Of a stretch of DNA of 64,000 nt, positions 5,111 through 55,932 are shown one piece after another. The stretch spans positions 22,257 through 86,256 of the forward strand of contig JAISGX010000036.1 in NCBI GenBank assembly GCA_031262805.1, given 5' to 3'. Origin of the DNA: Verrucomicrobiota bacterium (GTDB taxonomy: Bacteria > Verrucomicrobiota > Kiritimatiellia > CAIQIC01 > Lenti-01). The number at the start of each line of letters is the position of its first letter. The stretch's first letter is position 1. Under the pieces are notes generated by a model that was not told the DNA's origin, ran no database searches, and worked only from the letters and a program-made list of their open reading frames with translations. The translations under genes and the position numbers were made by a program.

Positions 5111-5203
5111 CCGCTCCCAACTCGCATCCCCAAACCTTCGGACAAAACCGCCAGCCATTCAGGCGCTTTCGCGCTCCCGTTTTGTCCTTATGGGACAGGA
5201 GTG
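5111..5203 (+). repeat. Copy A of a ~93-bp structured repeat (ccgctcccaa...cgttttgtccttatgggacaggagtg)
   Basis: ~90% identical to 53803-53895. Core TTTTGTCCTTATGGGAC is also present at 55825-55841. Predicted long-range stem (ggacaaaacc / ggttttgtcc), an internal GCGC-TTTC-GCGC hairpin and a GTCC-TTATG-GGAC hairpin. Followed 65 nt later by a hairpin plus T-run. Confidence 0.8.
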
Positions 5204-5262
5204 GAAACTTATTTTCCAATGCGTAAAAAAAGGGTTCCCGGATAGCCATGAGGTCCGGAACC

Positions 5263-53602: not shown

Positions 53603-53802
53603 CCCCTTTCCGCCGCCCTCGGCTCTAGGCTGACGCCCGCCTCTCACATGCGTTCGAGCTCAACGACGTATGCGACGCGATGGGCGAACACGACATCAAG
53701 TGGTAGATCTGGTGCGGGCGACTGCTCCACCTGCTGTTGCGCTTCCTGCGCGACCTGAGCCAGTGGGCTTCTTCCTTCTTCCGGCTCTTCGCCCTTTCCG
53801 CC

Positions 53803-53895
53803 CCGCTCCCAAATCACACCCCTAAACCTTCGGACGAAAACGCCAGCCATTCAGGCGCTTTCACGCTCTCGTTTTGTCCTTATGGGACGAGAGTG
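53803..53895 (+). repeat. Copy B of the ~93-bp structured repeat (left boundary of island 2)
   Basis: ccgctcccaaatcacacccctaaaccttcggacgaaaacgccagccattcaggcgctttcacgctctcgttttgtccttatgggacgagagtg. ~90% identity to 5111-5203. GC drops sharply immediately 3' of it. Confidence 0.8.
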
Positions 53896-54068
53896 AATAG
53901 ATATTGTGTTTTTCGCATGTAACTGCCAACTTTACATGCGGCGGTATCTCCTGTGTCGTTTGCAGATATAAATTCACAATAAGCAAGTGTCCATTGTTGA
54001 CAGCCTGTGCAATTAGCTGGCAATAACGGAGTGCCCTGCTGTGATGATCACCATGCAGTATCGTGATT

Positions 54069-54404
54069 TCATCCACTCATCACAATACGTGCAAAACGAT
54101 CCAATAAGTCCTTTTTTGTCCACCATAATATTAAATCCTCATCGTCATTTGTTGCAGGGCGTATTTTATAAAATTCGTGCCAATCATGGTCATCCACATC
54201 TTTACTGTAAAGTTGCCATAACTGCATCCGTAACGAAGGGATGCCGACTTCTTCAGGAATAAAATATTCATGGTCATACATATGCCTTTTCAATTGCGCA
54301 ATGTCATCCTTTAAAACCTCGCCATCGATAAGTAAGCGACCCCATGCTTTGTAGTTGCTTGCATCGCGATACAGGTATTCAATTACCGTTTTCTGTTTCG
54401 CCAT
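54069..54404 (-). CDS. Orphan hypothetical protein (111 aa), last gene of the island-2 operon
   Basis: AT-rich ORF 6 nt downstream of the HNH gene. No recognisable family. Confidence 0.5.
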   Translation of the reverse strand: MAKQKTVIEYLYRDASNYKAWGRLLIDGEVLKDDIAQLKRHMYDHEYFIPEEVGIPSLRMQLWQLYSKDVDDHDWHEFYKIRPATNDDEDLILWWTKKDLLDRFARIVMSG

Positions 54405-54410
54405 AATTTG

Positions 54411-55172
54411 TCAACCTTTAAAAACATGCTCATTATGCCAGACAAGATAGTTTTTCTCAGGCAAAAACTTCGCTGGTAGAATAATTCTGCGACCCTCCAA
54501 CTCCGCAATCAATTGACCTTGTTTGCTATTGTCTCGTTTGATAGCTCCTGATACCAGTATGCTATAGTCTGCCGTCACCGTAATTAACCCTCTATCAAAC
54601 GCCTTGTCGTGTATGGCTGATAAACACAACCCGTTACGTGGATTTAAGCGTAGTTCGCTTGCTGCAGCCCATGGCACAATGTGGCTTGCAACCAACAAAC
54701 CATGTATTGAAAGACCGCTCATACAGCAACGATTCTGATAACTTGCCATTACCGAGTTGCGGAAAAATGCCTGCCCAATTCTTGCCATTGTTGTAATTAT
54801 TCTGGTTTCACCCATATATGAAATACCGACGTCACTTTCCTGCTTTTCGTCAGGCTGTATACTCGCAAACTGAAAAGCGCACTCTTCACTCAAACTCGTC
54901 CAATCACTATGAAAGGCATCCCATATTCTTTTGTCTGCGACAGAAGCGTTGCCAAGACCTTTGCGACCACTATTGCGTATGGCTGGATCGAGGCTCGCGA
55001 AGTTTACCAATTTCATGGCAACGGCATTGGCCGACCTGCCTAAGAATCGAGCCAACACCTGTATTTGATTGTTTCTTGCATCAATCTTGCCAAAAGGGAG
55101 TTGACAGTATAAGTAAAATGCCAGTTTCAACTCTTGATCAGTCCAGTTTTTTCGCGTGTTTGTAGTTTCCAT
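54411..55172 (-). CDS. HNH endonuclease (HNH_2 / PF13391-like, putative restriction endonuclease)
   Basis: C-terminal motif ASHIVPWAAASELRLNPRNGLCLSAIHDKAFDRGLITV (His...Asn...His-x2-FD-x-G). Distinct N-terminal domain NWTDQELKLAFYLY...LARFLGRSANAVAMKL. Low GC. Confidence 0.75.
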   Translation of the reverse strand: METTNTRKNWTDQELKLAFYLYCQLPFGKIDARNNQIQVLARFLGRSANAVAMKLVNFASLDPAIRNSGRKGLGNASVADKRIWDAFHSDWTSLSEECAFQFASIQPDEKQESDVGISYMGETRIITTMARIGQAFFRNSVMASYQNRCCMSGLSIHGLLVASHIVPWAAASELRLNPRNGLCLSAIHDKAFDRGLITVTADYSILVSGAIKRDNSKQGQLIAELEGRRIILPAKFLPEKNYLVWHNEHVFKG

Positions 55173-55187
55173 CGCGGTATTCCTTGC

Positions 55188-55633
55188 TCACATTACTTTG
55201 TACATTCCGTTCCGTGCTGTAACCGAGTGTTTTTTCGATACTCCGGCTATTGAAAACGGTTGACAAGGGAAACCCGCAAGAAGTATGTCATGCTCCGGTA
55301 TATCATACTCATTGATTTTAGTTATATCGCCGTAAGGCATTACACCAAAGTTTTCATAATACGTTCTTTGGCAATACTTATCCCATTCACTTGAAAAAAC
55401 ACATTCGCCGCCCTGTGCTTCAAAAGCGATACGCATACCGCCTATTCCCGCAAATAGGTCTATAAACCTAAACAAGGCGGCATCGTGCTTGCTCTCTTTG
55501 CTCTTTTCCTCAAATAAGAGGGCAAGGGCTTCTAATATACAATCCTGCCGCGTCTTGTTCGCAACAGTTGCGTATTCTGTTAAGCTGGTGTATATACTCG
55601 ACCATCAAGTCGAATATGTACTTGTTGTGGCAT
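55188..55633 (-). pseudogene. dcm: Remnant of a Dcm/M.EcoRII-like DNA cytosine-5 methyltransferase (motifs I-IV only; N-terminal frameshift, C-terminal two-thirds missing)
   Basis: FRFIDLFAGIGGMRIAFE...VFSSEWDKYCQRTY...[23 protein letters not shown] aligns with E. coli Dcm (FRFIDLFAGIGGIRRGFE...[21 protein letters not shown]) and then stops 14 nt before the HNH start. The upstream in-frame extension has no start codon. MPQQVHIRLDG... is in another frame. Confidence 0.75.
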
Positions 55634-55820
55634 GGTGTTCACCTCTTGGAATTTTCTAATACCTATTATGACACAGTTGTTTCCAACAAGTCAATAAATT
55701 GGGTCTAATGTAATGCCTCCCGTTAGTCAAGGGTGGAGCAGGTGAAGAATTCGATGGCCGCCGCCAGAGTGATCAAGCGGTTTTTCAGCCGCACCCGCGA
55801 GTTGGAGAGGGCGATCCGCC

Positions 55821-55848
55821 CCCATTTTGTCCTTATGGGACGGGAGCG
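55821..55848 (+). repeat. Copy C (truncated) of the structured repeat, right boundary of island 2
   Basis: ccattttgtccttatgggacgggagcg shares the 17-nt core TTTTGTCCTTATGGGAC and flanks with copies A and B. The GTCC-TTATG-GGAC hairpin is retained. Confidence 0.7.
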
Positions 55849-55932
55849 AAACGATTCCATGATTGAATCCTCCACGGGTTGCGCTACAGTAACGGTTGGT
55901 GGAGCCCCAGCAGAGGATATCGCGTGAATTCA

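Follow-up and report, generated by a model that had tools for sequence, protein, structure and literature searches.

The locus described here is a cluster of three minus-strand genes within a 64,000-nucleotide (nt) stretch of a Verrucomicrobiota metagenome-assembled genome (MAG; assembly GCA_031262805.1, contig JAISGX010000036.1, positions 22,257 to 86,256), which is referred to throughout as the window. The cluster comprises the 5' remnant of a dcm-like cytosine methylase gene (the stub), a gene encoding a 253-amino-acid (aa) nuclease of the HNH_2 type, and a gene encoding a 111-aa protein (the partner); these are the three elements named in a preliminary description of the sequence, and all of them were found (Table 1). 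The trio, imported as a 2-kb island and partly decayed, derives by internal deletion from a Dcm-HNH-partner module. The nuclease probably does not depend on the adjoining methylase. Related loci are cited by L numbers and homologous proteins by P numbers.

Table 1. Features of the island, in window coordinates.
Feature	Position	Strand	Remarks
Island, horizontally acquired	53864-55855		~2 kb, between imperfect 39-nt direct repeats and GC shift
Upstream (left) border repeat	55817-55855	minus	duplicates hairpin 1 only
Promoter-like site TTGACT-18-CATAAT, extended TG	55665-55694	minus	upstream of operon; consensus match only
dcm pseudogene, segment 1	55592-55633	minus	start codon and ribbon-helix-helix-like beta-strand MPQQVHIRLDGRVY; three-frame translation
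dcm pseudogene, main body	55193-55595	minus	rest of ribbon-helix-helix-like domain and motifs I-IV/V; 64-70% identity to P0161-P0163
Nuclease gene	54411-55172	minus	253 aa, helical N-terminal domain and HNH_2; intact
N-terminal helical domain	54858-55151	minus	residues 8-105; homeodomain-like three-helix core and two helices
Catalytic segment of nuclease	54414-54791	minus	H164, N180, H188 and the CC149-150 pair
Partner gene	54069-54404	minus	111 aa, YLYRDASNYK family; start 6 nt past HNH stop
Downstream (right) border, two-hairpin element	53835-53900	minus	~65 nt; U-run after hairpin 2, terminator-like

The HNH nuclease and its N-terminal domain

The nuclease had been described as intact, and this is borne out: all residues that are invariant in an alignment of 43 homologues, CC149-150, SH164, N180 and H188 among them, are retained. 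The catalytic His, the Asn and the metal-binding His that the beta-beta-alpha-metal core of HNH_2/His-Me finger enzymes requires are present. HNH_2 is matched at residues 149-199 (E 2e-11), the full length matches the PADLOC model PDLC04132 'HNH' (E 1.6e-101), and there is a second PADLOC match to PDLC03546, 'Type II restriction enzyme' (E 1e-46); the names given to the protein by JGI and NCBI are predicted restriction endonuclease and HNH endonuclease. Homologues are numerous (6560 detected), with none at the DNA level in E. coli genomes, and no protein of the island matches Vsr (PF03852). The protein is basic (isoelectric point, pI, 9.1) and its AlphaFold model (predicted local distance difference test, pLDDT, 80.8) consists of a helical domain, a disordered linker and the HNH domain. 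The solved structures nearest to the HNH domain are those of the modification-dependent enzymes VcaM4I and TagI, and the HNH half of the protein matches positions 157-284 of NF045808 (E 6e-19), at a score of 68 bits against a cut-off of 180.

The helical domain, residues 10-105 in the model, has a block pLDDT of ~82-97, exceeding 90 for most of its length, and has no sequence match in Pfam or the PDB. None of the reader domains SRA, EVE/PUA, DUF3427, SBD, winged helix or NEco was recognised in it; no beta wing is predicted, no winged-helix match was obtained, and an hhalign comparison with the DNA-binding domain of GcrA returned a probability of 1%. As modelled, it is a generic three-helix bundle that would correspond to no known modified-base reader. 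A profile search with the domain recovered 2403 representative clusters, and column identity within the domain averages 70%.

Three homologues combine the domain in different ways. P0373 (425 aa) has a phosphorothioate-reading SBD, then the N-terminal domain found in the window, then the HNH domain, and scores 263.9 bits against PT-DNA_restrict, for which the cut-off is 180; in P0313 (329 aa) the N-terminal domain is duplicated in tandem ahead of the HNH domain; P0371 (459 aa) carries a helix-turn-helix and Dcm motifs I-IV, the first of them degenerate, in frame with the nuclease module. The earlier proposal that the N-terminal domain could read a modified base is weakened by these comparisons. 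Because P0373 carries a separate and genuine SBD ahead of the same domain, for which no reader match was found, the architecture suggests that reading is not the task of the N-terminal domain, which would instead be part of the nuclease module.

The methylase remnant

The stub open reading frame (ORF; 55188-55475) matches positions 1-82 of the 324 in Pfam DNA_methylase (PF00145; E 8.5e-34), and also TIGR00675 (dcm). Motif I (FAGIGG) and motif IV (GFPCQPFS) are both kept, and nothing follows motif IV/V. The claim that motifs VI-X and the target recognition domain (TRD) are missing holds: the profile match ends at position 82, and tblastn searches of the 64-kb window with E. coli Dcm and with the full-length fusion from L001 recovered neither these parts nor any further Dcm-like sequence. 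Among full-length proteins the stub is closest to methylases that belong to EcoRII-type systems and have an EcoRII-N/EcoRII-C endonuclease gene beside them, and it therefore derives from a CCWGG-type methylase.

The coding sequence is interrupted twice. The N-terminal frameshift reported previously is present at ~55590-55595, where it parts MPQQVHIRLDGRVY from IYTSLTEYATV... (from 55595); tblastn with P0162, P0163 and P0165 places their residues 1-14 in one frame and everything from residue 13 in a second, and the two frames joined correspond to the ribbon-helix-helix (RHH)-like N-terminus of the homologues P0161-P0163. The second frameshift lies in an A6 run at 55230-55235, right after GVSKK. 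There is indeed a stop after VSKKHS, as first described, but homology does not end there: a neighbouring frame past the A6 run reads KKNTRLQHGTECTK and then a stop (HGTECTK, stop), resembling KKNALGRPHGFECTT of relatives (L089/L093), and the remnant thus continues slightly, to motif V. The HNH ORF lies in the same reading frame as the stub ORF and its TGA stop.

The methylase gene is dead here, through an internal deletion (motifs VI-X and TRD) and two frameshifts, and the stub is a pseudogene and not a methylase. Both frameshifts rest on one MAG contig and could be assembly errors; the internal deletion is not an assembly artefact, since it is common to the independent metagenomes L089 and L093. 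Splits were also observed in other genes: RHH-Dcm genes are divided into two ORFs just past motif IV in L172 (4001-5145), L175 (1462-2665) and L176 (4001-5142), with an EcoRII-type endonuclease following in L172 and L175, and P0174 and P0272 are split at the same GVSKK A-run as the second frameshift of the window. Such splits of RHH-Dcm after motif IV could be due to slipped-strand phase variation or to homopolymer sequencing error.

Methylase states among related loci

We compared 160 related loci, 80 from species-representative genomes and 80 from metagenomes. A full Dcm/EcoRII-type methylase is fused in frame to the N-terminal domain and HNH in 45, giving a protein of ~685-700 aa; the methylase is cut by the contig end in 14; only methylase remnants lie beside the HNH in 11; the nuclease occurs alone, with no adjacent Dcm, in 77; and 13 loci were uninformative. 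The preliminary description had observed that the HNH gene sits where the C-terminus of the methylase should be, and the 45 loci in which the same module is fused C-terminally to a complete Dcm confirm it. Solitary nucleases outnumber methylase-linked loci, which is the reverse of the classical restriction-modification (R-M) pattern.

Derivatives with an internal deletion or truncation are found in the window, L089, L093, L008, L039, P0371 and Neisseria gonorrhoeae, and further independent truncations with the HNH intact in L021 and L110/L150; in every decayed locus it is the methylase that is broken and not the nuclease. The two closest relatives of the window, L089 and L093, come from independent metagenomes, have the same stub-HNH-small-gene layout and are truncated at an identical point in the stub. 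Remnants that include a 5' piece mostly stop shortly past motif IV (window, L089/L093, L008, L039 and P0371). The gonococcal locus (L170:3956-5747) lies between pheS and pheT and contains vsr, a dcm cut inside motif IV, a 113-aa ORF and the HNH gene, whose product (Q5F9T7) is intact, 249 aa long, 39% identical to the window nuclease and present on at least 1000 contigs.

The methylases belong to two subfamilies, the first found in proteobacterial fusions and bearing the EcoRII/Dcm TRD motif TRTLSARYYKDG, and the second of the RHH-Dcm type, paired with EcoRII endonucleases in Firmicutes-like contigs. Genes for Vsr accompany stand-alone or stub-linked HNH genes in ~10 loci, including L093 and N. 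gonorrhoeae, and were found within ~5 kb of none of the 45 full fusions. An endonuclease of the MvaI/BcnI family lies directly downstream of the HNH gene in L052 (6965-7630; Pfam E 2.6e-31), where Dcm has decayed, and remnants of such endonucleases are seen in L018 and L039.

The GN dipeptide of motif X is absent from all 43 aligned fusions (that of L001 and 42 others, for example L001:3941-5998 and L010:4708-6759), the usual FGNSV being replaced by F[S/A][Q/E/D..][A/S][A/V], while the other motifs and the Dcm-type TRD are conserved. We do not accept this loss as proof that the methylases are inactive, given the strong purifying selection on the Dcm domain; enzymes of the Dnmt3 type also lack the motif X Asn.

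Selection and CCWGG content

Between L089 and L093 the ratio of nonsynonymous to synonymous substitution rates (omega) is 0.14 for the HNH gene (synonymous divergence, dS, 0.72) and 0.15 for the partner. Their stubs, compared over 45 codons, differ by 4 nonsynonymous and 26 synonymous changes (per-site proportions pN 0.04 and pS 0.79; Fisher p 2e-17). In the full fusions purifying selection acts on each of the Dcm, N-terminal and HNH domains (omega 0.02-0.21 overall; Dcm, 0.03-0.15), and the fused genes are mosaic: L010 and L033 share 94% identity across Dcm but 65% across HNH. Because methylase loss recurs and the genes retained stay under selection, the nuclease-partner pair would seem to function without a methylase in cis. 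That the nuclease has no need of this methylase, one option considered at the outset, therefore gains from the recurrent losses and from the omega of 0.14-0.15 in truncated relatives.

Outside the island, CCWGG is depleted in the window, with 130 sites observed against 210 expected (O/E 0.62, z -5.5), and among 112 palindromic patterns only CGCG and GCWGC are depleted more strongly; CCSGG is not depleted (O/E 1.09). As a discriminator between hypotheses this depletion fails, since the flanks of fused (O/E 0.68) and solitary (0.73) loci are alike.

The partner gene

The partner gene begins just past the nuclease gene, as first reported, but is no orphan, 40 homologues having been found. The family has an invariant YLYRDASNYK and conserved EYFIPE and DDHxWHE motifs, and is acidic (median pI 4.7); the model has an alpha/beta fold (pLDDT 89.7, predicted template modelling score 0.81), for which no match was found among solved or viral structures. 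No stop, frameshift or loss of an invariant residue occurs across the 253 and 111 codons of nuclease and partner. Homologues adjoin the HNH gene in either gene order (L001, L002), in L005 one stands beside the gene for a Schlafen-like helicase, in defence-like surroundings, and distant homologues are located in small-gene arrays on phage- or plasmid-like contigs. A link to DpnD was rejected, since PF14207, present in some distant homologues, sits in a separate N-terminal extension outside the conserved domain.

Downstream of the HNH gene there is nearly always a member of one of five recurrent small-protein families. That of the window is the commonest (52 loci), and follows 19 of the 45 full fusions and 23 of the 77 solitary nucleases. 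The four other families replace the 111-aa gene at 39, 11, 9 and 4 loci (examples are L049:6762-7193, L021:6780-6950 and L048:2848-3330); sizes among them include ~130-155 aa, ~56 aa for a zinc-ribbon-like family and ~157 aa, and none has a Pfam family above threshold.

Limits of the island

The low GC content of the island was correctly noted, yet the figure of 20-25% first given for it was too large: GC is 0.41-0.46 at ~53750-55750 against 0.55-0.62 on either side, a drop of ~12-17 points. The direct repeats at its ends (53864-53902 and 55817-55855) are 82% identical, and the host genes that flank it encode a GyrB/ParE-type topoisomerase subunit and a PD40/TolB-like protein. A near-identical copy of the two-hairpin border element occurs at 5145-5210 (minus strand), 48 kb from the island; both copies have an RNA folding z of -2.4, and an Rfam search of the island and border repeats gave zero matches. 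One possibility is that the element is a terminator or repeat, dispersed in the host, at which the island inserted. Promoter-like sites are no more frequent in the region than in shuffled sequence, while good Shine-Dalgarno-like sequences precede both the HNH and the 111-aa genes. The exact island sequence is found on one contig only, the 94.5-kb MAG contig of the window.

Comparison with known systems

The nuclease is a member of Pfam HNH_2 and of the PADLOC 'HNH' restriction component (PDLC04132 and PDLC03546), matching PDLC04132 over its full length and HNH_2 with its catalytic domain, and COG3440-type proteins and the HNH_2 group 6 enzymes AlwI, HphI and BbrI are among its closest known systems; it lies outside the SRA-, EVE-, SBD- and winged-helix-HNH families because a reader domain was looked for in it and not found. 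VcaM4I (EVE-HNH, 6yex) and TagI (SRA-HNH, 6ghs) flip bases with N-terminal readers of the PUA superfamily, whereas the N-terminal domain of the window protein is all-helical and homeodomain-like, with no detectable relation to those readers. The SBD-HNH enzymes (ScoMcrA/SprMcrA, NF045808) are alike in their HNH half, and P0373 exceeds the curated cut-off for that family; the window protein has no SBD. Winged-helix-HNH enzymes dependent on N6-methyladenine are 224-283 aa in length and have neighbouring methylases inactivated by frameshift (PMC11037411). They resemble the window protein in size and in plan, a small DNA-binding domain followed by HNH, but the window protein differs in having no predicted beta wing.

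Among classical enzymes, AlwI, HphI and BbrI have recognition domains that are unrelated or unknown (PMC5714182), and the methylase in cis in the window is dead. The stub and the fused methylases are of the Dcm/EcoRII type (PRK10458, TIGR00675), with a TRD motif in common with E. coli Dcm, and the arrangement recalls Dcm-Vsr in that a second gene lies directly at the 3' end of dcm; here, though, that gene encodes an HNH nuclease and not Vsr or EcoRII, the window methylase lacks motifs VI-X and 43 fusions lack the motif X GN. In N. meningitidis the NmeDI system (V.NmeDI, M.NmeDI and R.NmeDI) sits between pheS and pheT (PMC7973814), the very site that the gonococcal vsr, dcm stub and HNH occupy; R.NmeDI is 351 aa (PMC2095814) against 249 aa for the gonococcal HNH. 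For Dcm-HNH_2 fusions, for the N-terminal domain and for the partner family, no description was found in the searchable literature.

Discussion

The reading that we tentatively favour, to which we would give a little less than an even chance, is that the nuclease module works as a restriction-type system without a methylase in cis. It is preferred because methylase loss is recurrent while the nuclease stays under selection, because the HNH domain has its affinities with modification-dependent enzymes, and because the module is found fused to an SBD. The 253-aa protein would bind DNA through its basic, helical N-terminal domain and would cleave at a one-metal HNH site like that of the modification-dependent VcaM4I and TagI and of the SBD-HNH enzymes that require phosphorothioate. 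The neighbouring methylase would not restrain the nuclease on the host chromosome; discrimination would depend on some feature of the DNA apart from Dcm methylation, in a Type IV-like manner, or on control by the acidic partner, and the stub would mainly provide a promoter, a ribosome-binding site and a reading-frame context for expression. In sum, the 253-aa protein would be a defence nuclease of the restriction type, independent of any methylase in cis.

Whether Dcm methylation itself is the feature recognised, so that loss of Dcm would be selected, had been raised in the preliminary description. This idea conflicts with the evident selection on Dcm in the fusions, and dependence on CCWGG methylation is unlikely because the Dcm domain of the fusions is under purifying selection.

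Several observations weigh against a methylase-independent nuclease. In about 40% of informative loci the nuclease is still linked, covalently or directly, to a Dcm that is complete or cut by the contig end; selection on the Dcm domain (omega 0.03-0.15) demonstrates a genuine functional link with CCWGG-type methylation, for which the proposal does not account. The N-terminal domain is no recognised modification reader. In ~10 loci vsr beside the HNH gene resembles a classical V-M-R system, PADLOC classes related models as Type II restriction enzymes, and HNH_2 includes the classical enzymes AlwI, HphI and BbrI (PMC5714182). The partner does not replace the methylase, since it is as frequent with fusions as with solitary nucleases, and HNH sequences covary little with the class of partner, the effect being one of three points and confined to the C-terminal tail (identity 0.533 against 0.501). 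With regard to a possible toxin-immunity or toxin-antitoxin pair, the analysis saw this slight association and the adjacent small genes of the five recurrent families. No biochemical data on any member of the family were found in the searchable literature.

The most serious alternative, somewhat unlikely in our judgement, is that the module is the remnant of a Type II system: the HNH protein would be a methylation-sensitive endonuclease for CCWGG or a similar site, the host being protected by a Dcm encoded elsewhere in the genome, and the fusions would be single-chain R-M enzymes. The exclusive linkage of the module to CCWGG-type (Dcm/EcoRII) methylases, from both subfamilies, is in its favour, as are the Vsr genes in ~10 loci, the MvaI/BcnI endonuclease next door in L052 and the match to PDLC03546. 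The high column identity of the N-terminal domain is what would be expected if all members read one site, and the depletion of CCWGG but not CCSGG in the host, with similar depletion in the flanks of fused and solitary loci, is compatible with Dcm-type methylation in all these hosts. The survey tells the other way, with 77 solitary nucleases exceeding the methylase-linked loci and the methylase always the broken part, an order of loss that would be lethal unless a backup methylase already existed. Such a backup would be needed in every lineage without a copy in cis; no second Dcm-like gene lies within the 64-kb window, and N. gonorrhoeae is not known to methylate CCWGG. Purifying selection on the HNH gene persists past methylase truncation, and the SBD-N-terminal domain-HNH architecture of P0373 would be odd if the N-terminal domain read CCWGG. 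An intact cognate methylase beside the endonuclease, as in classical Type II systems, is absent from the window and present in the 45 fused relatives. Occurrence of the gene alone, as in Type IV systems, is seen in the 77 loci without an adjacent Dcm, with 11 more holding remnants; yet 45 are fused to a Dcm under selection.

It is improbable that the whole module is decaying in this MAG, such that nuclease and partner look intact only through recent arrival and are functionless in the host. In favour of such decay, the composition of the island has not shifted toward the host value, the first gene of the operon has suffered two frameshifts and a large deletion, its presumed autoregulatory RHH-like domain is disrupted, and a single contig carries the exact sequence. 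Against it, no stop, frameshift or invariant-residue loss is found in the 253 and 111 codons, the same truncated layout is kept at omega ~0.14 in L089 and L093, and good Shine-Dalgarno-like sequences lie ahead of both genes.

We allow only a small chance that the truncated Dcm, an N-terminal methylase half with the AdoMet-binding motifs I-III and the catalytic loop, is a working part kept by purifying selection, either as a regulatory subunit sensing S-adenosylmethionine (AdoMet) or DNA, or as part of a stub-HNH-partner unit that settles by destroying a resident dcm. The basis for this is the constraint on the L089/L093 stub (pN 0.04 against pS 0.79) and the in-frame motif I-IV stub of P0371; if it were true, how active the nuclease is would depend on how the cell's DNA is methylated or on its supply of AdoMet.

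A dcm-disrupting cassette is very unlikely. On this hypothesis the stub-HNH-partner unit recombines into a resident dcm, with motif IV as a one-sided homology anchor or as an HNH homing site, and inactivates the methylase already there, a necessity for a nuclease that attacked Dcm-methylated DNA. It draws on the 5' remnants, which end at most ~30 codons past PCQ in 6 of the ~9 lineages that keep one, on the mosaic fused genes (94% identity in Dcm and 65% in HNH for L010 and L033), and on the nucleotide identity profile of L089 and L093, which rises from 55-62% ahead of motif IV to 78-92% between that motif and the end of the partner gene, and falls to ~42% thereafter. The jump at motif IV largely reflects protein conservation, with synonymous sites saturated (pS 0.79, against 0.46 in HNH), and a recombination breakpoint there was rejected. 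Nor is there a 3' part of dcm downstream as a second homology arm; the window island holds the whole 5' end of dcm and its promoter region between unrelated host genes, and the fusions retain a Dcm domain under selection.

Least probable of all is a mismatch-repair nickase, a Vsr analogue nicking by T:G mismatches that arise from 5-methylcytosine deamination, which would account for fusion to the 3' end of dcm and for harmless solitary copies: the module does occupy the position of vsr relative to E. coli dcm, vsr is missing within ~5 kb of 45 out of 45 full fusions, solitary copies are tolerated and a conserved N-terminal domain suits a constant substrate, but Vsr and HNH occur together in ~10 loci, N. 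gonorrhoeae and L093, a close relative of the window, among them, the HNH domain falls among restriction enzymes, and neither the SBD fusion nor a partner in defence-like and mobile-element contexts fits a role in repair.

Should the nuclease prove to be an ordinary CCWGG endonuclease, the finding would be of lesser value, amounting to a new family of HNH enzymes isoschizomeric with EcoRII/MvaI, together with a case of orphan Dcm methylases giving cross-protection. If instead it is a methylase-independent nuclease, the window belongs to a large family, with thousands of homologues, of uncharacterised restriction-type HNH enzymes, which brings with it new elements in the form of a DNA-binding domain without assignment and a partner fold without a known match. 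A member conserved throughout N. gonorrhoeae makes experiments easy, and the natural series from fusion to solitary nuclease could show how R-M systems turn into methylase-independent defence genes.

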